This document shows positions 8,685-32,792 of a stretch of DNA of 64,000 nt, piece by piece. A program made the translations under genes and the position numbers. Source of the DNA: Candidatus Parcubacteria bacterium (GTDB lineage Bacteria > Patescibacteriota > Minisyncoccia > UBA6257 > HR35); the NCBI GenBank assembly GCA_025999335.1, contig AP024681.1, forward strand, positions 227,656 to 291,655, in the 5' to 3' direction. A model generated the notes under the pieces. The model worked only from the letters and a program-made list of their open reading frames with translations, made no database searches and was not told where the DNA came from. Within the stretch, counting starts at the first letter, position 1. Every line of letters starts with the position of its first letter.

Positions 8685-9950
8685 TTATTTATATTTAATG
8701 ATTTTTTTTAATTCCAAGGGTAAATTTTTTAATTTCAAAACTTCTTGCGTTCCGTGCTCCATTTCTTTTAAAATAATCGATTCTCGGCTTAATTCCTGAA
8801 ACCCTAAGATTAAAGAATATTTTAAACCATTTTTATTAGCAAATTCAAGTTGACTGGCTAAACTGCTTTTAAAAAAATTTGCCAAAGGATTAAAACCGTG
8901 CGCTTGCAAATCTAAATATATTTCAAAAGCTTTAGGTCTAATCTCTTCACCGGTAAAAGCTACAAATATCTTTGGTTTTTCAAATTTATATTTGAAATCA
9001 ATATTATCTAAAACTATTTTTAGTCTTTCTAAGCCAACAGCGCCACCAACAGATGGTAAAGATATATTACCAATCACTGGTCCTAAATCATAACGACCGC
9101 CACTAGCTATAGCAAAATCAAATTGTTCAACAAAAATCTCAAAAACAGTTCGAGAATAATAATCAAAACCACGCACTAAAGTTTTATCAAGCTCATAATC
9201 AATATGAAAATACTCAAATAATTCTAAAACTTTTTGAAAATGTAACTTGCAAAATTTACAGAGAAAGTCTAAAATATTCGGAGCATTTTGTTTATAAACA
9301 AGGTCTTTTTCATTTTTGCAATCTAATAAACGCAAAGGGTTTAATTTAAAACGTCTTTGACAATCTGAACAAATTTTATTTTTTAATGGCCTATAGTAGC
9401 TAAGTAAATTTTTTCGGAATTTTTTGCTGCATTTCGCACAACCTAAACTATTCAATTTAATTTTTATACCATTTATTTTCACTTTTTTAAAAAAACTCAT
9501 AATAGTAAAGATAATATAAAAATCAGCGAAAGGATCTTCAGAGTTTAATATTTCTAAACCCCACTGACGATGCTCTCTTAATCGACCATGCTGAGGCCTT
9601 TCCCGTCGATACATTGTTCCAAGATAAAACAAAGATACCGGCTGCGGCAAACTATTCATCCCATTTTCAAAATAAGCTCTAACGATAGAAGCTGTATTTT
9701 CAGGCCTTAAAACAAAATAATCGCCACTATCTTTATTTTTTAAATAAAACATTTCCTTTTCAATAACATCAGAAGTTGTTCCTAAACTGGCAGTAAAAGT
9801 TTTTACATTTTCAACTAAAGGAGTTTCAATATAATTAAAATTATGCAAAAGAGAAAAGTCAGCTAATAAATTTCTAATAAATAAATAAAACTTTGCTTCT
9901 TCGCCAAAAATATCTTTCATTCCCCGAGGTTTTTGTACTTTTAATTTCAT
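8685..9950 (-). CDS. hisS: Histidyl-tRNA synthetase
   Basis: 421 aa with class II aaRS motifs (FYLGTMYRRERPQHGRLREH; GGRYD...GGAVGLERL). Confidence 0.75.
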   Translation of the reverse strand: MKLKVQKPRGMKDIFGEEAKFYLFIRNLLADFSLLHNFNYIETPLVENVKTFTASLGTTSDVIEKEMFYLKNKDSGDYFVLRPENTASIVRAYFENGMNSLPQPVSLFYLGTMYRRERPQHGRLREHRQWGLEILNSEDPFADFYIIFTIMSFFKKVKINGIKIKLNSLGCAKCSKKFRKNLLSYYRPLKNKICSDCQRRFKLNPLRLLDCKNEKDLVYKQNAPNILDFLCKFCKLHFQKVLELFEYFHIDYELDKTLVRGFDYYSRTVFEIFVEQFDFAIASGGRYDLGPVIGNISLPSVGGAVGLERLKIVLDNIDFKYKFEKPKIFVAFTGEEIRPKAFEIYLDLQAHGFNPLANFFKSSLASQLEFANKNGLKYSLILGFQELSRESIILKEMEHGTQEVLKLKNLPLELKKIIKYK

Positions 9951-9999
9951 AATTTAAAAAAATAATTAATTACGAAGACGCTTGAAATTAATAATTAAT

Positions 10000-10530
10000 T
10001 TAAAACCGTAAGGCTCGTGCTAATTTAACAAAAGATAACTGCAGTAAAACTTTGCCAACAATATTTTTTTTGCTAATAGTGCCCCAACTTCGTGAATCAT
10101 AACTAACTTCCCGATTATCTCCTAAAACAAAATATTCATCTTCGCCTAAAGTAATATTTTTATAACCAGCCGTGTAATGATTTTGTAAGTAATCTTCTTT
10201 AAGAACAAAACCTAAGGGATTTTCTTCATTATAAACAATAATTTTATCATTATTAATCACAATTCTTTCTTTAGGCAATCCGATTAATCTTTTAATATAA
10301 TAAATATTTCTATCAAAAGGAGGGTGAAAAACAATAATATCGCCTCTTTTTGGTTCTTGAAGGCGATAAGAAAATTTATCAATAATTAAATAATCAAAAT
10401 TATGAAAATTAGGTTCCATACTCTCCCCTTGCACCAAAAAAGGTTCTAATAAAAACATACGGATAGGCAAAATAACTAAAACAAATAATAATATTAACTC
10501 AATAATATTAAATATCCATTCTTTTTTCAT
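10000..10530 (-). CDS. lepB: Signal peptidase I
   Basis: N-terminal TM; GESMEPNF (catalytic Ser box), KRLIGLPKE, GDNREVSYDSRSWG. Confidence 0.8.
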   Translation of the reverse strand: MKKEWIFNIIELILLFVLVILPIRMFLLEPFLVQGESMEPNFHNFDYLIIDKFSYRLQEPKRGDIIVFHPPFDRNIYYIKRLIGLPKERIVINNDKIIVYNEENPLGFVLKEDYLQNHYTAGYKNITLGEDEYFVLGDNREVSYDSRSWGTISKKNIVGKVLLQLSFVKLARALRF

Positions 10531-10603
10531 CTTAAAAATTTTAAAAAAAATTAATTATAATATTATAACATAATTAATAAATAAGTTTGAGCTTTAATGA
10601 TAA

Positions 10604-11170
10604 ATGAATTCAACTAATAAAATAAAATTAATTTATGGCATAGGTAATGATGATGAACGTTATAGTTATTCTTTCCATAATATCGGTAAAGAAATTGTTA
10701 AATATTTTTTTGAAAAACCTTCGTCTTTAAAATACGCTCAATATCAAAAATATAATAAGCATTTAATCTTAGCCACCAATACTAATTATATGAATGAATG
10801 CGGCAAGGGCTTACGGGAATTAAGCAAAGAATTCAAAATAACTCCATCGTCAATACTTATTATTCATGATGACGCTGATTTAAGTTTTCCCTTGTTTAAA
10901 ATAAGTTTTAATAAAAATTCCGCTGGCCATAAAGGCATTGAATCAATTATTAATCATTTAAAAACAAAAAAATTCTGGCGTTTCCGCATAGGCATTCAAA
11001 AAAAGCAACGTCAACAAGCCATTGATATTGTTTTAAATAAAATGAATAATCGAGAAAAAGAGTTAATGAATAAAAAAATAAAACCAAAATTTAAAATAAT
11101 CCTTGACAAATTGGCTTCTGGTTATCTTCCCAATGAATTAAATATCGCTAAAAATTTCTTTTTAAGTTAA
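10604..11170 (+). CDS. pth: Peptidyl-tRNA hydrolase
   Basis: LIYGIGNDDERYSYSFHNIG and IHDDADL...GHKGIESI match Pth boxes. Confidence 0.7.
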   Translation: MNSTNKIKLIYGIGNDDERYSYSFHNIGKEIVKYFFEKPSSLKYAQYQKYNKHLILATNTNYMNECGKGLRELSKEFKITPSSILIIHDDADLSFPLFKISFNKNSAGHKGIESIINHLKTKKFWRFRIGIQKKQRQQAIDIVLNKMNNREKELMNKKIKPKFKIILDKLASGYLPNELNIAKNFFLS

Positions 11171-12431: not shown

Positions 12432-14156
12432 TTAAATTTTAATCACTACTGGCAAAACCATTGGACGTCGTTTAGTCTTTTTAAATAAAAACTCAGCAAT
12501 ATCTTCTTTTAAACTATACCTTATTTGTTCTTCTTGTACAGCTGGCTTTTCTTCGCCAGAAAATCTAATATGTTTATCAACAATTTTTCTAATAAGGTTT
12601 CGAACTTCTTTTAATAATTCTTTTGATTCTCGTAAATAAACAAAGCCGCGGGAAATAATATCCGGACTTGTACGTAATTGGCCACTAGCTGAATCAATCG
12701 TCACAATTACCACAAAAATTCCATCATTGGCTAAATTCTGTCTATCTCGTAAAACAACTTCCTGAACATCACCAACACTTAAACCATCAACATAAACTAT
12801 ATTTGCCGGAACTTTTTCATTGCTAACAAAAACTTTATCCGGTAGAGCTTTGATAATCTGTCCATTTTGCGCTAAAAGAACTCTTTCTTTTGACATTCCA
12901 ATATTAAGACATATTTCCTCAGTCGCCTTCATCATAAAATAATGGCCGTGAATTGGCATTACATATTCAGGCTTAACTAAATTGATTAACAATTTAATCT
13001 CATTAGAAAAAGCATGCCCTGAAGCATGAATATCCATCATTTGATAATGAAAAACATTAGCACCTTGTTTTTGTAAATCATCTTTCAACTCTTGAATAAT
13101 TCTTTCATTGTTAGGAATAACTGAAGAAGAAAATATTACTGAATCGCCGGGAATAATTTTAAAATACTTATGCTCGCCGGCAGCAATGCGCATTAAGGCT
13201 GAACCTTCTTCAGCTTGTGAACCGGTACAAATTATTGTTACTTGATTAGGCGGCAAACGAAAACTATCTTCAGGCTTGATAAAAATACCCTTAGGAGTTT
13301 GAATGTATTTTAAAGCTTTGGCAACTTCTACATTTGTTTTCAAAGTTCTGCCGTCTAAAACAACCTTTCTTCCATAAATACCCGATAACCAAACGATTTG
13401 CTGAATTCTTTCTAATAAAGAAGCAAATGTAGCAGCGATAATTCTACCTTGAGCTTTGCGAAAAATAGTCTCTAAATTTTCCATAATTACCTTCTCGGAA
13501 GCAACAAAACCGCTTTGAAAAGCATTAGTAGAATCAACCATTAAAACACGCACTCCGCCCAATGACAGCTTAACAATCCGCGATAAATCTGCAGGTTTAT
13601 CAAAAAAAGGAGAAAAATCTATTTTAAAATCACCAGTATGAATAATATTACCTACAGGCGTTTTAATCAAATAACCAATAGAATCAGGAATATTATGATT
13701 AACATGGAAATAATTAATAATAAAAGAACCAAGCTGAAAAAATCTAAATTTATCCTTTTTAATTTCGTGAATTTCTAGTTTAGGAGCATTAGGAAAATCT
13801 AATTGTCTCTTTAGAATAATTCCCTTAGCTAAAGGAGTGGCATAAATTGGAGGGTTGCCTATTCTTTCAATTAAATAAGGAATAGCGCCAATATGATCAT
13901 AGTGTCCATGGGTAATTAAAATACCTAAAATTTTATCTTTGTTGTGTTCTAAATATTCGACATTAGGAATGGTAAAATCAATGCCCGGCATTTCTTCATA
14001 ATAAGGATAACCTAAACCAAAATCAATAATAATAATCTCTTTATTGTTTAATTCCAAAGCCATCATATTTCTACCAACTTCTTCCAAACCTCCCAAAGGA
14101 ATAATTTTTAATTCGCCTTCATATTGTTTTAACGGCATTTGAGTTTTTGCTTTCAT
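12432..14156 (-). CDS. rnj: Ribonuclease J (beta-CASP metallo-beta-lactamase RNase)
   Basis: 574 aa; HGHYDHIG (HxHxDH) and the beta-CASP region ...DSTNA...HASGHA; typical RNase J length. Confidence 0.75.
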   Translation of the reverse strand: MKAKTQMPLKQYEGELKIIPLGGLEEVGRNMMALELNNKEIIIIDFGLGYPYYEEMPGIDFTIPNVEYLEHNKDKILGILITHGHYDHIGAIPYLIERIGNPPIYATPLAKGIILKRQLDFPNAPKLEIHEIKKDKFRFFQLGSFIINYFHVNHNIPDSIGYLIKTPVGNIIHTGDFKIDFSPFFDKPADLSRIVKLSLGGVRVLMVDSTNAFQSGFVASEKVIMENLETIFRKAQGRIIAATFASLLERIQQIVWLSGIYGRKVVLDGRTLKTNVEVAKALKYIQTPKGIFIKPEDSFRLPPNQVTIICTGSQAEEGSALMRIAAGEHKYFKIIPGDSVIFSSSVIPNNERIIQELKDDLQKQGANVFHYQMMDIHASGHAFSNEIKLLINLVKPEYVMPIHGHYFMMKATEEICLNIGMSKERVLLAQNGQIIKALPDKVFVSNEKVPANIVYVDGLSVGDVQEVVLRDRQNLANDGIFVVIVTIDSASGQLRTSPDIISRGFVYLRESKELLKEVRNLIRKIVDKHIRFSGEEKPAVQEEQIRYSLKEDIAEFLFKKTKRRPMVLPVVIKI

Positions 14157-14223
14157 AATTAATCAATAAACTAATAAATATAGAAAATTAATTAAATGAC
14201 CGTCGATATATTTTAAAAAGGTG

Positions 14224-14306
14224 TGCCCCGGGTGAGATTTGAACTCACACGAGTAAAACTCGCAAGGCTCTGAACCTTGTGCGTCTGCCAATTCCGCCAC
14301 CGGGGC
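14224..14306 (-). tRNA. tRNA-Leu (anticodon CAG)
   Basis: Reverse complement reads GCCCCGGTGGCGGAATTGGCAGACGCACAAGGTTCAGAGCCTTG...long variable arm...GAGTTCAAATCTCACCCGGGGCA; anticodon stem CAAGG/CCTTG with loop TTCAGAG. Confidence 0.7.
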
Positions 14307-14315
14307 AAAGTAAAT

Positions 14316-14750
14316 TTAATACTCATTAAAATTCAAATCAATTATTCCGCCACTTAAATCAATAGTTACGGTTGCTTTTAAGTTTTTTCTTAATTCGCTA
14401 CTTGTCAAATAACCATTAATATCAATTACTTTAGTTGTGCTATTTAACGAAACAACTGAATAGCGAAAATAATTTCCACTAGGCATAACAAAAATAGCAT
14501 TAGTGGTAGCAAAATTTGGATTCTTGTTAATGTTATACAAAGAATAATTTAAACCGCTAAAAACTAACGATTTTAAAACGATATATTGATTAAACTCGCG
14601 GTTAAAATTTAAATTAACAATAGATAAATTCCCTAATATTATAATAAAAAAAATAATAAAAATCAATATTAAATTAACCAAAAGAAAAGTTATTTGTCCT
14701 TTCGTTTTTCTTTGAAAAAATCCTTTTAATAATTCGTTAATAAACATCAT
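14316..14750 (-). CDS. Pseudopilin-like protein (type IV pilin-like N-terminus)
   Basis: N-terminal G-QITFLLVNLILIFIIFFIIILG hydrophobic helix after a short basic leader; no Glu at +5. Confidence 0.35.
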   Translation of the reverse strand: MMFINELLKGFFQRKTKGQITFLLVNLILIFIIFFIIILGNLSIVNLNFNREFNQYIVLKSLVFSGLNYSLYNINKNPNFATTNAIFVMPSGNYFRYSVVSLNSTTKVIDINGYLTSSELRKNLKATVTIDLSGGIIDLNFNEY

Positions 14751-14755
14751 AAAAA

Positions 14756-15679
14756 TTAAAAATTCGTTAAAATAATATTGTAATAATTAAAAAAATCGCT
14801 ATTTTGTTTGCCAATTTCAATATCGCCGCTAACAGTTGAAGAAATAAATTGCCAATTAAATTTTCTAAAAATTAATCCTGGATTAGATATTAAGTTTATA
14901 GAAGAAATTTCAGGATTAGCTTCTGCTAAATACAATCTGCCTTTATCTTTATAAACAAGCAACCAACCAATAACATCATTCCAGGCATAACCCTGTAAGT
15001 CTAAATTATCTAAAGTTATTTTAAAATTAGTCGAACTACAAACATCTAAATCTTGACAATTAAAAGCAATCCAACCAATAACATCATTCCAAGCAAAACC
15101 ACGAAACTCATTATTGCGATCTATGCAAACACCATAAACAACCGACTCGCCGGGACTAGATCTAAATTTTATCCAACCAATATTTGGCGACCAAGCATAA
15201 CCAGATAAACTATATGTTGACGAAACTGTTGTTAGATTATTAATTGAACAATTAGAAGAACTTGAAGCAAAGACACCAAAGCCACCACCCTTAAGACTAA
15301 TGCTACCAATGCTTAGATTAGACAAATAACCATAAAAATAATTATCGCTTTTATTTAAACGTGCTGTTTGTCCTAAAAAAATAATATTACTTGTTGTTCT
15401 TGAATCAAAAATCACTTCCCAATCAGTAAGAATATTTAAATTTTTTGCTTGCCAAGCTAAATTATTCATATTAAAAAAAATATTTTTTGCTTCGATGGCA
15501 GAAGAATTTTTATTATAAAAATCAACATAATATTTCAAAAAATGATTAAGGATATTAAAAATAAGAATAATAATAAAAGAAAAAATCAAAAAATACAACA
15601 AAATTTCTACTAAAGTAAAAGCCCGGGAGTTATTATTAAAACAGACATTTAGTTTATGTAAAAACTTATTGTGACGCAT
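14756..15679 (-). CDS. Type IV pilin-like protein with internal GYAWNDVIGW repeats
   Basis: Prepilin-type N-terminus NNSRA-FTLVEILLYFLIF; three copies of G(Y/F)AW(N/S)(D/P)(V/N)IGW(I/L). Confidence 0.5.
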   Translation of the reverse strand: MRHNKFLHKLNVCFNNNSRAFTLVEILLYFLIFSFIIILIFNILNHFLKYYVDFYNKNSSAIEAKNIFFNMNNLAWQAKNLNILTDWEVIFDSRTTSNIIFLGQTARLNKSDNYFYGYLSNLSIGSISLKGGGFGVFASSSSNCSINNLTTVSSTYSLSGYAWSPNIGWIKFRSSPGESVVYGVCIDRNNEFRGFAWNDVIGWIAFNCQDLDVCSSTNFKITLDNLDLQGYAWNDVIGWLLVYKDKGRLYLAEANPEISSINLISNPGLIFRKFNWQFISSTVSGDIEIGKQNSDFFNYYNIILTNF

Positions 15680-16109
15680 ATTTTAGTTTAGCTATCAAAA
15701 AATTATCTGTAAATTTAAGATTTAAATATTCAACACTAATTGTAGTCATTTTTAAGTCGCTATTACCTCCATAATTACCTATTTGAAAACTAAAACGATA
15801 AAAACCGCCGCTACCAAGATTAACATTTTCTTGTCCATTCTTAATAAGCCATGAAGAGGTAGCTTTTTCAAAATAGTAGTTATTGCCAACAATTAAACTA
15901 TTAATAACACTCCAGTTATTTTTTGATAAAGCTATAAGAATATTGCGATATTTCTCAAATCCAAAAATAGCTACATTTTCGTTTAAACTTTGATAATCGT
16001 AAGATTTTTGCAGAACTAACGAAAAATTAATAAAAAGGACTAAAATAATCGAAACCAAAAGCAAGGTGACTAAAATCTCAACTAAAAGTTGCCCATGGTT
16101 AAAATTCAT
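15666..16109 (-). CDS. Type IV pilin-like protein
   Basis: N-terminus [23 protein letters not shown] (G at -1, E at +5); its start overlaps the fusA stop (ATGA). Confidence 0.5.
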
Positions 16110-18244
16110 TTATGTTTATTGGTTTCCATAGCCTGAACAATGTTTTGGCTAAGCTGTTGAGGAACATTTTCATAATGAGAAAATTCCATAACTACCGTAC
16201 CTCTTCCTTGAGTAAGAGAACGAACAACGGTTACATAACCAAACATTTCTGCTAAAGGAGCAAAGGCTTTGATAACCTTGCTTAAACCACGATCAAAGAC
16301 ATCCTCAATTTTTGCTCTTCTTGATGATAAATCTGCGGTAATGTCACCTAAAAATTCAGCAGGCACAACAACTTCTAATTTCATAATCGGTTCTAATAAA
16401 ATAAGATTAGCTTTTTTAACTGCTTCTTGTAGGGCTATTGAACCAGCAATTTTAAAAGCTATATCCGAAGAATCAACTTCGTGATAAGAACCATCAAATA
16501 GAGTTATTTTAATATCGCGAATAGGATAACCAGCTAAAACTCCTTTGTCTAAAGCTTCTTTAACTCCTTTCTCAACTGAAGGAATAAAATTATCAGGAAT
16601 AATACCTCCTTTGATGCCATTAACAAATTCAAAACCACTACCTCGTGGCAATGGCTCTACTTTAAGCCAGACATGACCATATTGTCCGCGACCACCACTT
16701 TGTCTAATATACTTACCTTCAGCAACTGCTTCTTTGGTAATTGTCTCTAAATAAGCAACTTGTGGTTTGCCAACATTAACATTAACATTAAATTCCCTTT
16801 TTAAACGATCAACCTTAATATCTAAATGCAGCTCACCCATACCACCTATAAGAATGTCACCAGTATCTTGATTCTGAGTTAAATGAAAAGTTGGATCTTC
16901 ATCAGTTAAAGCTTTAAGAGCCATACCCATTTTTTCTTGATCGCTTTTTGTTTTTGGCTCAATGCGCATCCATATGACTGGATCAGCAAACTCTATTTTT
17001 TCAAACATAATCGGAGCTTTAGGATCGCATAAAGTTTCACCGGTTTTTAGTTCTTTTAAACCAACAATAGCGCCAATATCACCAGCGTATAATTCGCTAA
17101 CCTCTTCACGAGAATTAGCATGCATACGCGCTAATCTTCCAATTCTAAATGTCTTTGCTGTTGTTGTGTTTAAAACATTAATCCCTGATCGCAAAACACC
17201 TGAATAAACTCGCACATAGGACAAGGTACCAACATAAGGATCAATAGCAATTTTAAAAACTAATGCTGATAAAGGCTCGTTATCATCTGCTTTTCTATAA
17301 ACTTTATTATTAGTAAGAGGATCAATTCCTTCTAAATCAGGCAAATCTACAGGAGAAGGCAAGAAATCAACAACTCCGTCTAAAATAAGCTGAATGCCTT
17401 TGTTTTTTAAAGACGAACCGCAATATACAGGAATAAGCTTATATTGCAAAGTAGCTCGTCGAATCGCTTTTCTAATATCATCTTTGGTAAATGATCCTTT
17501 AAGATATTGTTCCATAAATTCATCATCTTTTTCAGCTAATTTTTCTAAAAAAATATGCTGCCATTTCTGCGCATAAGCTAAGTTCTCCTTTGCAATTTCT
17601 GTTCGCTTAACAATCTCGCCTTTATCGCCCTCAAAATACACTTCTTGCATATCAATTAAATCTATCACTCCTTTCAAATTCTCTTCCTGACCTATAGGAA
17701 CATTAACTAAAACGGCATTGCTTGTTAAGCGCTCATTTATAGAATTAAAGCAAAATTCAAAATCAGCGCCCATTCTGTCTAATTTATTAATAAAGCATAA
17801 TCGTGGAACTTTATATTTATCAGCTTGATGCCAAACTGTTTCTGATTGAGCTTCGACGCCTTGAACACCATCGAAAACAACAATAGCACCATCTAAAATT
17901 CTCAAAGATCTTTCAACTTCAGCGGTAAAATCAACATGCCCTGGAGTATCAATGATATTAATACGAAATTGATCTTTTGTTTTTTCTTCTTTGCTGTTAC
18001 TATCAGTCGTCGCTGTTAAATAGCTTTGCATCCAAAAACATGTAACAGCTGCAGCGGTAATTGTAATACCTCTTTCTCTTTCTTGAGGCATCCAATCGGT
18101 TACTGTTGTTCCTTCGTGAACTTCGCCTATTTTATAAGATATGCCTGTATAAAATAAAATTCTTTCAGTAGTTGTAGTCTTACCGGCATCTATATGCGCA
18201 ATAATACCTATATTTCTTGTTTTTTCAATAGGATATAATCTCAT
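16106..18244 (-). CDS. fusA: Elongation factor G
   Basis: [19 protein letters not shown]...DTPGHVDF...; 712 aa; downstream of rpsL-rpsG. Confidence 0.9.
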
Positions 18245-18306: not shown

Positions 18307-18513
18307 TTATGGCAAATAAGGCAATAAAGCCATTTGTCTAGCAATTTTAATTGCTTTAGACAACTTACGTTGATGCCAACTACATACAGCAGTTTCTTTG
18401 CGTGGCTTAATCTTCATAGCTGCTGATAAAAATTTAGACAAAATTTCCACATCTTTAAAATCGATATCACTAGCTGCCTGAGAACAAAAATAACAAGTAA
18501 TATCTGTGGTCAT
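18307..18513 (-). CDS. rpsR: 30S ribosomal protein S18
   Basis: CYFCS...IDFKDVEILSKFLS...KPRKETAVCSWHQRKLSKAIKIARQMALLPY matches the S18 consensus. Confidence 0.7.
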   Translation of the reverse strand: MTTDITCYFCSQAASDIDFKDVEILSKFLSAAMKIKPRKETAVCSWHQRKLSKAIKIARQMALLPYLP

Positions 18514-18518
18514 TAGTT

Positions 18519-19019
18519 TTAAATTTTGGAGTTAGATTTTTTCTTACTCCACCAACCAAAATGAGCAAAAGCTTTATTAGCTTCAGCGCTCTTGTGCGTC
18601 TCGTTTTTACGTTTAATTGCTTCGCCCTCTTGATTGCTTGCAGCAATAATTTCTTCAGCTAACTTTTCATACATTGTTCTACCCTTGCGATTACGCGCAG
18701 CTTCAATAATCCATTTAACAGCTTTAAAAAAACGTCTATTAACTCTTACTTGTCGGGGAATTAAAAAGGTAGCTCCACCAATTCGCCTTGGCCAAACCTC
18801 AACCACTGGAGCAACGTTTTTAATAGCTGTTTGAAAAACTTTTAATGGATTTTGCGATGTTTTTTCTTTAATCAATTCCATAGCTTTATAAAAAATTTTT
18901 TGAGCTTTTTCTTTCTTGCCATCAACCATTATATTATTAACAAATCTTGTTATAGCAACACTATTGTAAACAGGATCCGGCTTCCAAGAACGTTTAATAA
19001 TAATACTTTTACGAGGCAT
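18519..19019 (-). CDS. rpsG: 30S ribosomal protein S7
   Basis: 166 aa, S7-like (AIKNVAPVVEV...RRIGGATFLIP). Confidence 0.85.
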   Translation of the reverse strand: MPRKSIIIKRSWKPDPVYNSVAITRFVNNIMVDGKKEKAQKIFYKAMELIKEKTSQNPLKVFQTAIKNVAPVVEVWPRRIGGATFLIPRQVRVNRRFFKAVKWIIEAARNRKGRTMYEKLAEEIIAASNQEGEAIKRKNETHKSAEANKAFAHFGWWSKKKSNSKI

Positions 19020-19432
19020 TAGTTTTTAGGTTTTTTAGCACCATACAAAGAACGACCTTGTTTTCTATTTTCAACGCCACTTGTATCAAAAACACCACGA
19101 ACAATATGATAACGTACACCTGGCAAATCCTTCACTCTTCCACCACGCACTAAAACTATTGAATGTTCTTGTAAATTATGTCCTATCCCAGGAATATAAG
19201 CAGTCACTTCAGTGCCATTGGATAATCTTACTTTAGCGATTTTACGTAAAGCGGAATTTGGTTTTTTAGGAGTCATAGTATAAACACGCACGCAAACACC
19301 TTTTTTAAAAGGCGAAGGCAAATATTTTTCTTTTCTTTTCAAAGAATTAAAATGAAAAAGCAACGCTGGCGATCTTGACTTGCCTTTATCAATCTTACGT
19401 CCTTTGCGAACTAATTGGTTAATCGTTGGCAT
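19019..19432 (-). CDS. rpsL: 30S ribosomal protein S12
   Basis: [12 protein letters not shown]...KKPNSALRK...; canonical S12. Confidence 0.9.
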
Positions 19433-19470: not shown

Positions 19471-19665
19471 TTATAAAACTATTTTCTGTCTTAAAACTAA
19501 TTTGCGACAATCTTTGCAAACTAAAATTTTTTTATCATTCGCTAAAGTCAAAACTTGCAAATTCGGTTTTTGAAAATAATAATTAACCGGATTATACTTT
19601 CCTCTTAATTTCTTTCTTTTCGCAACTTTCTTTTTACCTTTGTGACATAAGTAACAACTTTTCAT
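19471..19665 (-). CDS. rpmB: 50S ribosomal protein L28
   Basis: 64-aa basic protein with an FQKPNLQ motif (L28 F.PNLQ) and a CxxC...CxxC zinc ribbon. Confidence 0.55.
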   Translation of the reverse strand: MKSCYLCHKGKKKVAKRKKLRGKYNPVNYYFQKPNLQVLTLANDKKILVCKDCRKLVLRQKIVL

Positions 19666-20996
19666 TTTAAAATAAAATCTAATTTAAGCAAATTATTTGC
19701 TATTGATTCCTCTTTGGTTAATTCAATTAAACGAAACTCTTTGCTAATATCTGTCTGAAATTGATCTTTATTATCCTTGTTAATTATAAACGAAAGACCT
19801 AATGGTTGATCTTTAACAAATTCTAAATTACTTAAAGCGCTTAAAGATAACGCCTTTTCTATATTATAAGATAATTTAAAATAATTTGTTAATTTATTAA
19901 TTATACCATTAAATTTATCAACATCAAAATTTTCTTGATTATTAACAACATTTCTTTGTAAGACTAATAGTTGATCATTTAAATTTTTTTGATAAATTAA
20001 TATTTCTTCGTTTAATTTTTGATTAAAAAATAAAAACACGCCTGAAATAATCGCTAAAAGTAAACTGGCATAAACTAAAGTAAAAATAATTATTGAAGGC
20101 AATTTATTTAAAAAATAAGCAAAATAAGATTTTATCGGCAAAAAATCAATAAATTCTTGATCGCTGAAAACTTTTTCAAAAATTAAATAAGAACCCTCAA
20201 TAATAATTTCAAGCGGCTTAATGTCTAAAAATAATGTCTGAAAATTTGTCTGAAAATTATCTAAACGGTAATCACTAATAAACAATATTTTCGTATCTGG
20301 CGCGATATTAGCTTTAAAAAAATTAATAAATTTATCAATAATAACATTTAAAGGTTGAGCTTCCAAATTAATTTCATCAATTAAAATTTTTTCAATTCTT
20401 AATTTTTTAATCAATAAAGATATTAAATTCTGTTTTTCAATAAAGAAAACAATATAGTCCTCATTAAAATCTACAAGAGTTTTATTTAAAAGATAGTAAT
20501 AAATTGCTTCAGTGATAGGACTGATAAACAAAGGGATAAGATTATATTTTTCAACGATTGCTAACAAACTATCAATAATGTCTTTGGGAACAAAAACAAC
20601 ATTAAAATTAGAAACATTAACCGACAGTTGATAGCGATCTTCTTTGTAAAAAAACGTATATTTTTCTAAAGAAAGAGGCGATGAGACTTTTAAATAATTT
20701 ATTATCGCTTCCCTTGGATTATTAGTGCGAGCTAAAGTAATTCTTTGAGTCAAAATATTAGGCAAATTAAGAATAATGCCCAGTGAAGATAATTTGTATT
20801 TAGAAATAAGAGAGACTAATCCTTTTTCTAAATTATCAAAAATTAACAATGAATCTTTAAAAATTGTGACTTCCAAATTTTCTATTTTAACAATATTTAA
20901 TGATTGCTGTTTTTTTATAAAACGAATATAAGTAATTGAATTAATATTAACAATTAATAAATCGTAAAATTGTTTATTTAAAGAAAATATGTTCAT
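19662..20996 (-). CDS. PilM-like actin-fold domain fused to a TM and PilN-like coiled coil (putative)
   Basis: 444 aa; a roughly 290-aa cytoplasmic domain, one TM (IIIFTLVYASLLLAIISGVFLFF), then a coiled-coil region; ATGA overlaps at both ends. Confidence 0.25.
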   Translation of the reverse strand: MNIFSLNKQFYDLLIVNINSITYIRFIKKQQSLNIVKIENLEVTIFKDSLLIFDNLEKGLVSLISKYKLSSLGIILNLPNILTQRITLARTNNPREAIINYLKVSSPLSLEKYTFFYKEDRYQLSVNVSNFNVVFVPKDIIDSLLAIVEKYNLIPLFISPITEAIYYYLLNKTLVDFNEDYIVFFIEKQNLISLLIKKLRIEKILIDEINLEAQPLNVIIDKFINFFKANIAPDTKILFISDYRLDNFQTNFQTLFLDIKPLEIIIEGSYLIFEKVFSDQEFIDFLPIKSYFAYFLNKLPSIIIFTLVYASLLLAIISGVFLFFNQKLNEEILIYQKNLNDQLLVLQRNVVNNQENFDVDKFNGIINKLTNYFKLSYNIEKALSLSALSNLEFVKDQPLGLSFIINKDNKDQFQTDISKEFRLIELTKEESIANNLLKLDFILK

Positions 20997-22558
20997 TTTT
21001 TAAACCACTGTTCTATTTTAACAAATCTTGAAGAAGCGTCAAAAAGATAACTTTGATCAAAATTATAAAAATCTTTACTTATAAAATAAATATAATAAGG
21101 ATTAACCAAAAAGATATTGGCTTTTAATTTTAAAATTAAATTTTCTAAATCAGCTAATTCTTGTGATAAATCAATGTTTGCTTCTTGAGTAAAACGTTGC
21201 AATTTTTCTTCAATAGCTAATGATTGGTGATTATTAATATTTAAACCCGCTGAAGAAAAGAATACTAAATTGGGCAAATGATCGAAAAAAATACCTGTTA
21301 ACAAAGCTGAATACTTCTTTTCTGCTATTAATTTATTTAAGTTATTTTTATCTGTAAATTGTATTTTAATAAAATTAAATTTCTCTTGCAAATATCTTGC
21401 TATATCAGGATATAAATAAGAACTATCAACAGTTAAAATTAAAGTAGATGTATTTTTATAATCTTTAAAAGTAATAGCACTAGACATAGTACTTGTAACA
21501 GCTTGATCTTTGATGAGCAAAATTTTTCTTAATGAAGGCGAAAAAATTTTTGATGTAGCTTCGGCGTAGTCTTTAAAAACATTTTTAACAAGCTCTTGCC
21601 TGTTAATTGCTTTAGACAAATAATCAATAACTTCTTCATTAACTTGAGCTTTGTTAAAAAAAATGCCAACAACGCGAGGCATAATAATTTTATATATATT
21701 ATAATCATAATGTATATTAGAGGGTAAAGAAAAATAATTCACGCCACCCAAACCATCTATCTCTTTTAAAACTAAAGCATCAAAAGCTTTCCGCACCGAA
21801 GAGTAACTATAAAAAACTATTTTATCTAAATAAGGTTGGGGTTGATATTGCAAGTTTCGCGTTAAAGTAAGAATAGTAATATCGTTTTTAGTTTCAATTT
21901 TTTCGAAAACAAAGGGACCACTGCTAACTTTTAAATCATTAAAAGATAATTGATTTAAAGAGTCAAAAGAAGCAAATTGTCTTGGAAAAATTCGGAAATT
22001 TTTTAAATTATAAAGAAAATAATTATCGTTATTTGGCAAAGTAAAGATTACTGTTTTTCTGTCAGGCATATTGATAGTAACCTTATCTAATAATAATCCC
22101 GGATTTGTCTTTTGTAAAAGATTAAAGCTAAATAAAAAATCGTCAATATCTATTAAAGCACCATCGCTCCAACGTAAATTATTTTTAAGATAAAAAGTGT
22201 AAGTCAACTTATCATTGCTAATTTTATAAGAATCAAAAAAACGAGATCTTATTTTGCCATTATCAAACTCAACAAAAGGAGGAAAAAGAATATTAAGAAT
22301 TGATTTTTGAGTAATATTGTTTTCATTAATTTTAGCTAAATTTAAAGGCTCAACAGCTTCATAAATACCTTCGCGATAAATGCCGCCAGTTTTCGGATAA
22401 GGGCTTTCAGCAATTTTAATGCGAATTAAACCAATAACCGTAAAAATGATACCTAAAAATAACAATAATAACACAAAAATAAAAAATTTATCATTAGCAA
22501 AAAACAATTTGTGTAATTTAAGAAAATTAATTCTGAATAAAGATTTTAAAGGCTTCAT
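20993..22558 (-). CDS. Membrane-anchored solute-binding protein, family 5 (OppA/DppA-like)
   Basis: N-terminal TM; LTYTFYLKNNLRWSDGALIDIDDFLFSFNLL matches the SBP_bac_5 signature region. Confidence 0.5.
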   Translation of the reverse strand: MKPLKSLFRINFLKLHKLFFANDKFFIFVLLLLFLGIIFTVIGLIRIKIAESPYPKTGGIYREGIYEAVEPLNLAKINENNITQKSILNILFPPFVEFDNGKIRSRFFDSYKISNDKLTYTFYLKNNLRWSDGALIDIDDFLFSFNLLQKTNPGLLLDKVTINMPDRKTVIFTLPNNDNYFLYNLKNFRIFPRQFASFDSLNQLSFNDLKVSSGPFVFEKIETKNDITILTLTRNLQYQPQPYLDKIVFYSYSSVRKAFDALVLKEIDGLGGVNYFSLPSNIHYDYNIYKIIMPRVVGIFFNKAQVNEEVIDYLSKAINRQELVKNVFKDYAEATSKIFSPSLRKILLIKDQAVTSTMSSAITFKDYKNTSTLILTVDSSYLYPDIARYLQEKFNFIKIQFTDKNNLNKLIAEKKYSALLTGIFFDHLPNLVFFSSAGLNINNHQSLAIEEKLQRFTQEANIDLSQELADLENLILKLKANIFLVNPYYIYFISKDFYNFDQSYLFDASSRFVKIEQWFKK

Positions 22559-27421: not shown

Positions 27422-28045
27422 TTAATATAATAAATTGATCATAAGTCTTTTATCATTGCCAACCTCTAAAACATTATCATTATCGCCGCTATCATATGAA
27501 GTTTGATCAATGCCGCCATTTTTTTTATAATCAGAAAATTCTAAATTAGCATTTATTTCAAAAGTTGAGCTGTTTCTTTTAAAAACATAAGCGTAAAATA
27601 ATTTTTTATTATAAGAATTAATTGGATCTACCGGGTAAGCAACCAATGGTGGATTAACTAGTGTTGTTAAATCAACCGGCAACCAACCATTGCCATCAAT
27701 ATTTATTAAATTAGAAGAAGATGCTTGTTTTAAACGATAACCGCCTAAAATTAAAGCGCTTAGGTTTTCAACATCAACGGGGACGGAAATAAAAATTGAC
27801 TGTTCGCTTTCTCCAATGCCGGTGTTAGTCGGTCCTAAAGCTAAGGGATTATTTTTATTAAACATTAAATAACTCGTTAAAGCCATTTCCAAAGCCCATA
27901 AATCAGCTATTCGCTTATCGTCCCTACTCTTTTTAAAAAAATTAGCATAATCAAAAACACTAAAGAAAAAAGTCAAAATTATTAACAAAATAAAGACAAC
28001 AATAACAATCTCCAATAAAGTAAGGCCTTTAGATTTAAGAACCAT
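27422..28045 (-). CDS. Pseudopilin / minor type IV pilin-like protein
   Basis: N-terminus MVLKSKG-LTLLEIVIVVFILLIIL (G at -1, E at +5). Confidence 0.55.
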   Translation of the reverse strand: MVLKSKGLTLLEIVIVVFILLIILTFFFSVFDYANFFKKSRDDKRIADLWALEMALTSYLMFNKNNPLALGPTNTGIGESEQSIFISVPVDVENLSALILGGYRLKQASSSNLINIDGNGWLPVDLTTLVNPPLVAYPVDPINSYNKKLFYAYVFKRNSSTFEINANLEFSDYKKNGGIDQTSYDSGDNDNVLEVGNDKRLMINLLY

Positions 28046-29925: not shown

Positions 29926-30459
29926 ATGTCAAAATATTCCTCTAAACAAAAATTAGGTTTCACTTTAATTGAAATGGCTGTAGTGCTATTGATTATAGGT
30001 GTTTTAGCTGGTATTGTTTTAAGAAATATAGGAACTCAAGGCGTCGATGCCCGTGATAAAAGAAGAATAGCTGATTTAAATAATTTAGGCATTCAGTTAG
30101 TGCAATATTCTAACATAATGGGTACTTATCCGACTACAGCTGCAAGCGGAACAAACTCAGGATGGACTGATAGTTTTAAAGCAGCTTTTGGAAATGCTAA
30201 CTTATCAACTCAATTACCACTACCTCCAACTTCAAATTCAGGAGATGTATATCACTATTTCCCTTGCTCTAGAGGAGGGGCAACTGGAACAGCGTTTGTC
30301 TTAAGAGCTAAATTAGAACAATCAGCGAATACAGCACCAGCTTTATATCGTCAATCATATAATTCAAGCTCTGAGCCATCTGGATGGTCGTGTACTGCGC
30401 CTAATGGAACAAGCTTTGATTGCCAAGCTTCAAATAATTACTTTTGTTATACTCAATAA
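29926..30459 (+). CDS. Type IV pilin (candidate major pilin)
   Basis: Class III signal KQKLG-FTLIEMAVVLLIIGVLAG; 177 aa; C-terminal Cys pair (WSCTAPNGTSFDC) for the disulfide-bonded D-region. Confidence 0.7.
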   Translation: MSKYSSKQKLGFTLIEMAVVLLIIGVLAGIVLRNIGTQGVDARDKRRIADLNNLGIQLVQYSNIMGTYPTTAASGTNSGWTDSFKAAFGNANLSTQLPLPPTSNSGDVYHYFPCSRGGATGTAFVLRAKLEQSANTAPALYRQSYNSSSEPSGWSCTAPNGTSFDCQASNNYFCYTQ

Positions 30460-30522
30460 AACTCAATAAAATAAAAAGTTTTTATTATTTAAAAATTAAA
30501 TAGACTTTTCATTTTTCACTTT

Positions 30523-31200
30523 ATGCACGGTTTCACTTTAATTGAAGTTACGATTGTTATTTTAATTATTACCTTGCTTATATCTATTGCTCTTAAATAT
30601 AGTTTTATTAATAACGAAGTTTTAGAATTAAAAAACGCAACTTATAGCCTTAGCTCCTATTTAGGACAATTAAAAGATATATCTTTTAGCCGAAAAAATG
30701 TTGATGGTTATGCAACAGATCAAAGTGCTTGTGCTTATGGATTAAAAATTTCTTCATCTTCTTATATAGCTAAAGCTTTTGTAACTAGCACTAGAGCTGA
30801 TTGCGATAAAATAGCCTCAAATACTCCTGCAGAATTTCAAGATGGCAATATTTATATTACTAAAAATTTTGATTTAGTAACAACTTCTGATTATTACAAT
30901 ATTATTAATGAACAATTTAATAATATTAAAATCTCCATAGCAACATCGGCAAACGAAAATTGCGAACCTTTTCCAGGTGATCTTCTTGAAATCAATGATA
31001 GTATACTTATAAGTTTTTATAATCCTTTTGGTGATTTTATTGTTATCAACGACTCCAATGAAAAAATATTCAATTCAAGAGAAATCGGTGTAAATCAAAG
31101 CGTTTATGTATGTTTAAAATTAAAATCATCAATTAACAACGAAGAACGTTTAATTATTCTTAATAAATTAGGGCAAATAAAAACAGTTCTTTTTAAATAA
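30523..31200 (+). CDS. Type IV pilin-like protein (minor pilin)
   Basis: MHG-FTLIEVTIVILIITLLIS. Confidence 0.55.
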   Translation: MHGFTLIEVTIVILIITLLISIALKYSFINNEVLELKNATYSLSSYLGQLKDISFSRKNVDGYATDQSACAYGLKISSSSYIAKAFVTSTRADCDKIASNTPAEFQDGNIYITKNFDLVTTSDYYNIINEQFNNIKISIATSANENCEPFPGDLLEINDSILISFYNPFGDFIVINDSNEKIFNSREIGVNQSVYVCLKLKSSINNEERLIILNKLGQIKTVLFK

Positions 31201-31262
31201 AAAAATATATTTTAAAATATTTTTAAAATAAAATTTATAAACGATGCTTAGCAAATTAAATT

Positions 31263-31754
31263 ATGAAATTAATAAATAACAAAGAAAAAGCTTTTACTTT
31301 AGCGGAAATAATTATTGCTTTATTAATTATTGGCATTTCTGTGGCAGCTTTAACAAGATTAGCTATTAATTACATAGTTTCTTTATCTTTAGCCAAAGAA
31401 CAACTTTTAGCTATTTATGTTACCCAAGAAGGTTTAGAACTTGCCACAGCTTTAAGAAATAGCGCTCCAACTGGTTCAAACAACAGATTTCAAGTGCCTA
31501 TTAACACAACTTCTAACGCAATATCAACTTATTGTTTAGATTTTAATTCAAGCTCTAAAGAAATTACTACTACAACTGACTGTGCTGTTTCTTGGAATCG
31601 AAAATTCACGCGCGAAATTATTTATCAAACCTTAGCAAGAGCAAACCCTGGAGGCGATGATTATATAATAAGCATTATGTCTAGTTCAACATATAATCAA
31701 GAACCTCGATTTAGTTTAAATCAAAAAATTGTTCATACAGGTTATATAAGATGA
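31263..31754 (+). CDS. Type IV pilin-like protein (minor pilin)
   Basis: NNKEKA-FTLAEIIIALLIIGI (Ala at -1). Confidence 0.5.
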   Translation: MKLINNKEKAFTLAEIIIALLIIGISVAALTRLAINYIVSLSLAKEQLLAIYVTQEGLELATALRNSAPTGSNNRFQVPINTTSNAISTYCLDFNSSSKEITTTTDCAVSWNRKFTREIIYQTLARANPGGDDYIISIMSSSTYNQEPRFSLNQKIVHTGYIR

Positions 31755-32296
31755 CTAAAAAGAATAAAGCTTTTACTTTAATAGAAACAGTGGTAGTAAT
31801 TATGTTGTTTATTTTTGCGATTGTAATTATAGCGCAATTGTATATTAGTTTAACCAAGGCTGCTTTAGATTTACAACAACGACATATAGCTATAAATTCC
31901 ATTCACTCAGGTTTAGAAAAAATATATAGCGAATTGAAAAATGGATTCAGTTTTACAATAACAGATAATTCAATACTTTTTAAAGACAAATTATGTGAAA
32001 CCGCTATGATTAATTTTGATTCCAATAGGTTACTACTATATTACAATAGCTCATCATTGTTTAATAAAGATTTTGTTGAATTAGAGGATGTGAAAATTTA
32101 TGGTTATAATCCATCTACAACACCTAGCGCTAGTTACTATTATCAACATTCATCATCAACAAAATTAATAGTTATTGACTATTATTTTTATATAAAAAGT
32201 CCCATTACAACAAAAACACCTTTATTTATTAGGCAAAGCATTGCTCCTTTAAATAGTTCCAAGGCCCAAATAGTAAATCGTTGTAAATTTGAATAA
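31751..32296 (+). CDS. Type IV pilin-like protein (minor pilin)
   Basis: KKNKA-FTLIETVVVIMLFIF; ATGA overlap with the upstream gene. Confidence 0.5.
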   Translation: MTKKNKAFTLIETVVVIMLFIFAIVIIAQLYISLTKAALDLQQRHIAINSIHSGLEKIYSELKNGFSFTITDNSILFKDKLCETAMINFDSNRLLLYYNSSSLFNKDFVELEDVKIYGYNPSTTPSASYYYQHSSSTKLIVIDYYFYIKSPITTKTPLFIRQSIAPLNSSKAQIVNRCKFE

Positions 32297-32792
32297 ACAA
32301 TTAATAATTTTTAATTTTATGACAATAAATAATCAAAAACATAAAGCACAAGTTTTACTCATCACCATCTTTATTCTAACCATTGCTTTAGTCGGTATGT
32401 TTTTTATTTTAAATCCAATAAAAATAAAGTTATTATCAATTCAAAATTTCGCCAATACCTATAAAGCCTACAATAATGCAATTAGCGGCTTAAATCTATA
32501 CACTCTGTGTATAAGTAGTGACGAAACATCAATGGAAAACTCTAGTGCTTGCGTTAATTTTATGTCTATCATAGAAACTTCAACAATAAATAATACTAGT
32601 TATTGTTACGAAAGCTACCTAAATAGCGGAACTTGCACAACCGCAACTATTCGCAGTACAGGAACTGATACTGATTTAAAATTTGAAATAAATGTTTACA
32701 AAATGCAAATCGTTTCTACTCGTACTATTTATAGACTTAGCTCAGGTGAATATAAGAATAACATAAAAAATATTCTTGAATACATAGAATAA
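32289..32792 (+). CDS. Membrane-anchored pilus-associated protein (PilX-like?), unknown
   Basis: N-terminal TM without a prepilin cleavage motif; last gene of the pilin run; Cys-containing. Confidence 0.3.
   Translation: MNKQLIIFNFMTINNQKHKAQVLLITIFILTIALVGMFFILNPIKIKLLSIQNFANTYKAYNNAISGLNLYTLCISSDETSMENSSACVNFMSIIETSTINNTSYCYESYLNSGTCTTATIRSTGTDTDLKFEINVYKMQIVSTRTIYRLSSGEYKNNIKNILEYIE

Follow-up and report, generated by a model that had tools for sequence, protein, structure and literature searches.

The str operon genes rpsL, rpsG and fusA of a Candidatus Parcubacteria bacterium are followed, on the minus strand of a 64,000-nucleotide (nt) stretch of contig AP024681.1 (hereafter the window, meaning the whole stretch analysed), by three small open reading frames (ORFs) with prepilin-like N-termini, which we call ORF-A, ORF-B and ORF-C. 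Gene order and coordinates were established on the minus strand of the window from the reading of ORFs together with Pfam and transfer RNA (tRNA) calls. The block consists of the following features, listed from upstream to downstream with protein lengths in amino acids (aa); an arrow in a motif marks the predicted cleavage site.

19019-19432, minus strand: rpsL, ribosomal protein S12, the first classical str-operon gene (137-aa ORF)
18519-19019, minus strand: rpsG, ribosomal protein S7 (166-aa ORF), in 1-nt overlap with rpsL and with syntenic orthologs
18307-18513, minus strand: rpsR, ribosomal protein S18, between rpsG and fusA (Pfam Ribosomal_S18, E = 2.9e-20)
16106-18244, minus strand: fusA, elongation factor G (EF-G), full length at 712 aa (Pfam GTP_EFTU, EF-G_D2, EFG_III, EFG_IV and EFG_C)
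16106-16109, minus strand: ATGA, holding the ORF-A start and the fusA stop, read straight from the sequence
15666-16109, minus strand: ORF-A, 147 aa, putative minor pilin with the prepilin motif MNFNH-G↓QLLVE
14756-15679, minus strand: ORF-B, 307 aa, putative modular minor pilin with a beta domain, in 14-nt overlap with ORF-A
14945-15230, minus strand: the repeats of ORF-B, residues about 150-245, from the alignment
14316-14750, minus strand: ORF-C, 144 aa, pilin-like without Glu5, 5 nt past ORF-B
14223-14306, minus strand: tRNA-Leu(CAG), called by ARAGORN and Rfam, 9 nt past ORF-C
12432-14156, minus strand: RNase J (Pfam RNase_J domains), with its own AT-rich leader, the conserved downstream neighbour

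An earlier note on this DNA had described three pilin-like genes that share an ATGA quadruplet with the end of fusA, and its description of the layout is exact to the nucleotide, from the quadruplet through the 14-nt A/B overlap and the 5-nt B/C gap to the 9 nt that precede tRNA-Leu. An earlier end of fusA, which would have undone the overlap, is ruled out, as all five EF-G domains are found and the EFG_C match spans residues 616-700 of 712. The ATG at 16109 is also the sole in-frame start ahead of the conserved ORF-A leader, M-x-x-x-(K)-G↓Q. The 3' end of the transcription unit is probably marked by tRNA-Leu(CAG).

The N-termini of the three proteins carry the features by which type IV pilins are recognized. 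A class III signal, with a short leader ending in Gly or Ala, a hydrophobic stretch of about 20 residues and Glu at +5, is present in ORF-A and ORF-B. ORF-A starts MNFNH-G↓QLLVE, with Gln at +1 and Glu at +5, and both of these residues (Q7 and E11) are invariant across 13 orthologs (alignment A2), while ORF-B reads ..SR-A↓FTLVE, with T22 and E25 invariant in 25 homologs (alignment A1). ORF-C has the cleavage motif and the hydrophobic stretch (K-G↓QITFLL); in the 14 orthologs of alignment A3, Q19 does not vary and none has a Glu at +5. By analogy, the absence of Glu5 makes ORF-C resemble a cap-type (GspK/PilX-like) pilin-like protein. The presence of Gln rather than Phe at +1 of the predicted cleavage site is an invariant trait of the ORF-A and ORF-C families and of the G↓QSLIE relatives described below (N-termini at 16092-16109 for ORF-A and 14694-14750 for ORF-C, minus strand, read from the sequence). 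Gln at this position is typical of archaeal EppA-type pilins.

Relatives of the trio were sought by scanning one genome per species with the ORF-B alignment as the query, and this returned 80 loci, to which the L-numbers used below refer. In about 25 of these, of which many carry the label Saccharibacteria, Paceibacterota or Patescibacteria, the gene with the repeats is part of a canonical candidate phyla radiation (CPR) pilus operon, with the order major pilin, pilB, pilC, G↓FTLIE minor pilin, G↓QSLIE or G↓QLLVE pilin, GYAW-repeat protein, Glu5-less protein and PilM-PilN fusion, beyond which come pth, on the opposite strand, and then lepB and hisS. The PilM-PilN (PilMN) family of these operons matches Pfam PilM_2 and PilN, and the homologs of ORF-A, ORF-B and ORF-C sit between pilC and pilMN. 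Profile-profile comparison with hhalign aligned ORF-A to the G↓QSLIE family (probability 98.7%, E = 4.5e-16). Of the 15 members of this family, 11 match Pfam N_methyl with E <= 0.01, and the best-scoring one, at 25.8 bits, exceeds the cut-off. The same comparison aligned ORF-C to the C-like Glu5-less family that precedes pilMN (97.8%, E = 8.7e-13) and the first 100 or so residues of ORF-B to the G↓FTLIE first minor pilin (94.6%, E = 6.8e-8).

The pth(-)-lepB-hisS anchor is found directly downstream of the pilus operon in many CPR lineages (L020-L083), and it is kept in the window as well, at 8685-11170, with RNase J and a 326-aa gene inserted between it and the trio. Given the profile homology and this retained downstream anchor, the trio corresponds to the set of minor pilins encoded in the CPR pilus operon. 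We consider ORF-A, ORF-B and ORF-C, as judged from their sequences, to be real type IV pilin-like minor pilins of this pilus, in agreement with the pilin-like nature claimed for them earlier, which the class III motifs, the homology to minor pilins of canonical operons and the predicted pilin-type N-terminal helix of ORF-B all support.

The same alignments suggest that the four genes of the canonical block have been condensed to three, the first minor pilin having been fused to the GYAW-repeat beta domain to give ORF-B. About 55 full-length homologs of ORF-B were found, some of which have a precomputed PF07963 assignment. Its C-terminal part contains three 'GYAW..(I/V)GWI' repeats in alignment A1, GYAWSPNIGWIKF, GFAWNDVIGWIAF and GYAWNDVIGWLLV. 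An AlphaFold2 (AF2) model (predicted local distance difference test score, pLDDT, 85; predicted template modelling score, pTM, 0.72) places a helix of 55 residues at 23-77, followed by an all-beta domain. Foldseek returned no pilin structure for this model, and for the beta domain there was no significant fold match in PDB or BFVD and no Pfam family. The domain is modular, being joined to a Sec-type signal, a G↓Q pilin or a G↓FTL pilin across CPR lineages, and it is a candidate tip adhesin. In the species-genome collection the repeat, written as 'G(Y/W/F)AW(S/N)xx(I/V)GW(I/L)xF', occurs in 325 confirmed stretches, a few of the matches being on contigs labelled archaeal or proteobacterial.

The link between fusA and the trio is conserved. 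The block rpsL-rpsG-fusA-A-B-C-tRNA-Leu-RNase J was found in 13 other species-level genomes (L006-L016, L017 and L022), which is the outcome of the comparison of the gene downstream of fusA in related genomes proposed in the earlier note. The full order rpsL-rpsG-fusA-A-B-C-RNase J is present in L007-L008, L010-L011 and L013-L015; L006, L009, L012 and L016 show as much of the block as the matches or contig ends permit, and L017 and L022 have the same order in a diverged form. Identities to the window are 64-79% for fusA, 31-42% for ORF-A, 29-46% for ORF-B and 38-48% for ORF-C, and rpsL orthologs (75-85% identity in L007-L022) keep their position. Among the species-level loci with a full-length ORF-B ortholog, fusA is immediately upstream of the trio in 13 of 14. 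The tRNA-Leu(CAG) gene is in the same place after ORF-C in all 14 orthologous loci checked, and RNase J is syntenic in every locus that reaches far enough.

The region upstream of rpsL varies, with an SBP_bac_5 gene, a pilMN-like gene and a 64-aa ORF in the window and L008, secA and a 394-aa pilin gene in L007, and dnaE-ligT in L010, L011 and L014. The invariant core is fusA-A-B-C-tRNA-Leu-RNase J. As the block has been kept in 13 species, the linkage of fusA to the trio is old and maintained. In one subclade (L010, L013 and L015, at about 14.2 kb), matches to a pilB-like ATPase occur about 4 kb downstream of RNase J, so that pilus machinery genes are still near the str-pilin block there.

The fusA/ORF-A junction itself was compared in the 12 orthologous loci in which both gene ends can be read. 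An overlap is counted in 11 of the 12. The two genes overlap by 4 nt in L007 and L008, by 1 nt in L012 and L014, by 8 nt in L010, by 11 nt in L011 and L016, by 14 nt in L013 and L015 and by about 38 nt in L022, and they are separated by gaps of 23 nt in L009 and 365 nt in L017. In L006, where fusA is cut by the contig end, they abut or overlap. The 14-nt A/B overlap is retained in 11 of 13 genomes. The spacer of L017 (6201-6567) contains a perfect 19-bp hairpin, folds unusually well (z = -5.9) and has a TATAAT box just before ORF-A; this locus represents a natural uncoupled variant or, possibly, carries a small inserted element. In L018 (372-1536), small ORFs judged by eye to be HicB/HicA-like and RelE/ParE-like are found directly upstream of an A-like gene, in the place that fusA has in the relatives, on a contig that ends 370 nt upstream of these toxin-antitoxin-like ORFs.

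Two features of the str operon in this genome touch on its composition rather than on the trio. The rpsR gene between rpsG and fusA had no tblastn match in any orthologous locus, and the rpsG-fusA spacing is too short to hold it in 10 of 11; from this comparison it appears to be an insertion in the str operon that is particular to this genome. A search for EF-Tu (tuf) at E <= 1e-20 was empty for the window and for all orthologous loci, and on this outcome the idea that the trio replaced tuf behind fusA was rejected. A fusA-like GTPase past RNase J in L012 was likewise considered, and its identity as EF-Tu was ruled out.

There is little at the junction that would single it out from the rest of the genome. 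Between the end of fusA and tRNA-Leu in the window there are no terminator-like sites; those of the region lie only within fusA, in the number expected from shuffled sequences. The RNA fold across the junction is not unusually structured compared to shuffles (z = -0.74), and Rfam, run over the whole window, found four tRNAs only and no leader or attenuator. The window contains 52 pairs of neighbouring genes on the same strand; an overlap is found in 13 of them (25%), six times as a 4-nt ATGA, and in 26 pairs (50%) the genes are within 10 nt of each other. A Shine-Dalgarno-like motif (GGAG, GAGG or AGGA) precedes just 1 of 65 window genes, the leaders being A/T-rich, and judging from these leaders translation initiation in this organism appears to be independent of Shine-Dalgarno sites. 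ORF-A, with its overlapping stop and start codons, also has no such motif ahead of it, and given its rarity across the window this absence does not discriminate. As ATGA overlaps and the lack of a Shine-Dalgarno motif are the norm of the genome, the junction carries no special signal. In this genome the fusA/ORF-A overlap does not by itself exceed chance, but its conservation does.

Taken together, these observations make it probable that the trio is the minor-pilin (priming and tip) module of the CPR pilus, which most Patescibacteria encode within the pilus operon and which was moved behind fusA in one Parcubacteria/Paceibacterota clade, where it is expressed with the str genes by re-initiation. 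The packing against fusA is compatible with co-transcription and termination-reinitiation, as the earlier note had held, and from the sequence co-transcription of fusA and the trio is likely. A promoter at or upstream of rpsL would give one transcript running from rpsL through rpsG, rpsR where present, fusA and the three pilin-like genes to tRNA-Leu(CAG). Given the apparent lack of Shine-Dalgarno initiation, we propose that ribosomes ending fusA re-initiate at the overlapping ORF-A ATG, and they may do so again at the conserved 14-nt A/B overlap and at the tight B/C junction. The pilus-priming complex would then be made whenever the translation genes are made, in a growth-linked and constitutive manner, and such an output would fit the lifestyle of an obligate episymbiont with a continuous need of pili. 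Once cleaved by a prepilin peptidase, the three proteins would nucleate the pilus; ORF-C, which lacks Glu5, would occupy its apex, and ORF-B would expose its repeat domain as an adhesin.

A number of points weigh against this interpretation, and an alternative is that the adjacency is neutral. In that case, compaction of the genome and slow rearrangement would have brought the genes together, the overlaps would exist only because intergenic DNA was squeezed out, and the trio would be expressed mainly from its own weak AT-rich promoter in the 3' part of fusA, functionally untied from the ribosomal genes. We regard this as possible, if on the unlikely side. The frequency of overlapping and closely packed pairs given above speaks for it, and since overlapping junctions are the default of this genome, that between fusA and ORF-A may reflect compaction instead of a selected coupling. 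The spacer of L017 with its hairpin and TATAAT box, the toxin-antitoxin-like genes of L018 and the 23-nt gap of L009 indicate that coupling is dispensable, and the pilin genes have a lower GC content than fusA.

The absence of a terminator or separate promoter, on which the coupling proposed in the earlier note depended, holds for terminators and for the 300 nt upstream of ORF-A, where the consensus scan found no promoter-like site in the window, but it does not extend further into fusA, where three promoter-like matches are located 340-520 nt upstream of ORF-A, at 16626-16449. The 3' part of fusA may contain an internal promoter; promoter-like hexamer pairs, those within fusA included, occur at chance density throughout the region, and consensus promoter scans are weak evidence at 27% GC, with CPR promoters being poorly defined. 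What neutral adjacency explains less well is that the link was kept in 13 species while fusA identity fell as low as 64% and the genes upstream of rpsL were reshuffled in at least three ways. The start of ORF-A stays within or abutting the fusA stop even as the length of the overlap shifts, and a promoter-like site within 300 nt of ORF-A is absent not only from the window but also from 7 of the 13 other loci scanned.

Other objections concern the identity of the proteins. The curated Pfam N_methyl and TIGR02532 thresholds are not reached by any of the three: ORF-B scores 19.9 bits against N_methyl (PF07963), below the cut-off of 21.2 bits, and ORF-A and ORF-C, taken alone, have no significant match to a pilin model in Pfam, NCBIfam or profiles of PDB sequences. 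NCBIfam gave sub-threshold ComG/Gsp-like matches for ORF-A and ORF-B and nothing for ORF-C, and profile searches of PDB sequences gave marginal matches of ORF-B to pilin N-terminal helices and noise for the other two. Furthermore, the window contains no pilB, pilC or pilD. It could be argued from these scores, and from the beta domain without a fold match, that the ORFs encode small proteins unrelated to the pilus, membrane-anchored or secreted, which resemble prepilins in their hydrophobic N-termini. We consider this very improbable in view of the profile homology of ORF-A, ORF-C and the N-terminus of ORF-B to genes between pilC and pilMN in about 25 CPR operons, the invariant Gly or Ala at -1 and Glu at +5 in ORF-A and ORF-B, the Pfam N_methyl matches of 11 of the 15 A-like relatives and the 55-residue, pilin-typical helix in the ORF-B model.

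A more far-reaching version would place the pilus-priming complex constitutively within the translation regulon, with one mRNA giving both EF-G and the three tip pilins by obligatory re-initiation. In this strict form the proposal is doubtful. If it were true, each cell would initiate pili in numbers that track its ribosome output, the pilus would be a growth-coupled organ of uptake or attachment of an episymbiont rather than an environmentally regulated appendage, the GYAW-repeat domain of ORF-B would be a host-recognition module, and this would be the first surface-organelle module to be evolutionarily fixed inside a str operon.

The one claim of the earlier note that is not upheld is that the arrangement implies constitutive high-level pilin expression. 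ORF-A, ORF-B and ORF-C are assigned as minor pilins, with candidates for the major pilin located elsewhere in the window (29926-30459 and 27422-28045); the junction has no special signal; and the spacer of L017 shows that coupling is not obligatory. Codon usage is uninformative, as a codon adaptation index built on ribosomal and chaperone reference genes did not separate these genes from the rest, and the expression level can thus not be read from the sequence. Re-initiation commonly gives less protein than is made from the upstream cistron. The amount of the trio proteins need not be high.

Further pilus-related genes, together with some of other or no assigned function, are located upstream of the str genes and in a second region of the window.

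20993-22558, minus strand: SBP_bac_5 protein, the furthest upstream of the genes listed
19662-20996, minus strand: 444-aa ORF, PilM-PilN fusion-like, upstream of the str genes
19471-19665, minus strand: 64-aa Cys-rich ORF, zinc-ribbon-like, between the pilMN-like gene and rpsL
29926-30459, plus strand: 177-aa major-pilin candidate with G↓FTLIEM, passing TIGR02532
29926-32792, plus strand: second pilin set, made up of the 177-aa protein, three pilins of the type G/A↓FTL(I/A)E and one 167-aa protein with K-A↓QVLL
27422-28045, minus strand: 207-aa pilin and major-pilin candidate, apart from the 29926-32792 set

The 444-aa ORF overlaps both the SBP_bac_5 gene upstream and the 64-aa ORF downstream by 4 nt, and its family comprises 20 unannotated homologs. 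It was aligned to the CPR PilMN family by hhalign (85.6%, E = 5.5e-6, 321 columns), and in its AF2 model (pLDDT 77) the N-terminal half is actin-like, a long helix spans 291-352 and the C-terminus forms an alpha/beta domain. For this model Foldseek returned PilM as the best match (5eou, E = 5.5e-13; 2ych; 3jc8), then FtsA and GspL. The profile and the predicted fold point to a PilM-PilN (GspL-like) fusion, encoded 3.5 kb upstream of the trio on the same strand. With this assignment, pilus genes would stand on both sides of the str genes, in a subclade only. The generalization that a str operon always has pilMN beside it was rejected, as the gene is found there only in the window genome and in L008 when the species-level loci that extend upstream are compared.

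The 64-aa Cys-rich ORF (CxxC...CxxC), directly before rpsL, is conserved in L008. Ribosomal protein bL28 was considered for it on a likeness seen by eye (PNLQ motif) and was not retained, no match in Pfam, NCBIfam or PDB backing any assignment. In the second pilin set, the 167-aa K-A↓QVLL protein has no Glu5 and is weakly ORF-C-like (hhalign 54.6%). Given this set at 29926-32792, the genome encodes two minor-pilin sets.

Comparable subunits are known from several systems. In type II secretion (GspH-I-J-K) and in type IVa pili (FimU-PilV-W-X), a few pilins of low abundance prime assembly and cap the fibre, and the apex subunit of the GspK type lacks Glu5. The trio is like these complexes by motif, with a Glu5-less subunit and one enlarged subunit. 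It differs from them in that the similarity is confined to the N-terminal helix, in having three genes instead of four, and in the Gln rather than Phe at +1 of ORF-A and ORF-C.

The closest parallel within the CPR is found in Saccharibacteria, where pilins of the type IV pilus (T4P) system T4P-1 are essential, the large minor pilins being candidates for tip lectins (PMC11623550). Class III signal peptides and a subunit without Glu5 are likewise encoded in T4P locus 1 of Nanosynbacter lyticus TM7x, together with a large minor pilin that carries an accessory beta domain and has been proposed to be a tip lectin, a likeness that is drawn by block and not by orthology of named pilins (PMC11623550). 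The minor-pilin blocks of the CPR differ from the present one in having four genes, whereas here there are three, the GYAW-repeat domain having been joined to the first minor pilin, and the block described here is detached from pilB/pilC and directly follows fusA. Modular type IV pilins such as PilB of Streptococcus sanguinis, in which a grafted domain has been proposed as a route to filament adhesion (PMC8179133), also combine a pilin module with a functional domain. The graft in ORF-B is, in contrast, a three-repeat GYAW..GWI beta domain and not a vWA-type domain or known lectin.

As for the operon itself, the str operon of Escherichia coli consists of rpsL-rpsG-fusA-tufA, with translationally linked cistrons. 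The present locus shares the rpsL-rpsG-fusA order on one strand and the packing of distal cistrons against fusA. It departs from that operon at its distal end, where pilin genes and then a tRNA gene are found and not tufA, and in the extra rpsR. Pilus genes behind fusA are therefore as unusual as the earlier note had stated when set against the textbook arrangement. Our search of the literature on fusA and pilins in Patescibacteria found nothing, and the minor-pilin module as the distal part of a str operon is a new operon arrangement, absent from the literature searched, with proteins of known classes.

No concept is overturned by this arrangement, given that the protein class is known and that closely packed genes are the rule in such genomes. 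What it yields is a defined three-protein candidate for a tip complex, a widespread repeat domain as a candidate adhesin and, in L017, an uncoupled locus for comparison. Patescibacteria depend on type IV pili for finding host cells and staying attached to them, some pilins being essential in the few cultivated members, and they have few regulators. The minor-pilin module behind fusA suggests a simple form of pilus control in one clade, namely expression together with the translation genes and no dedicated regulation.

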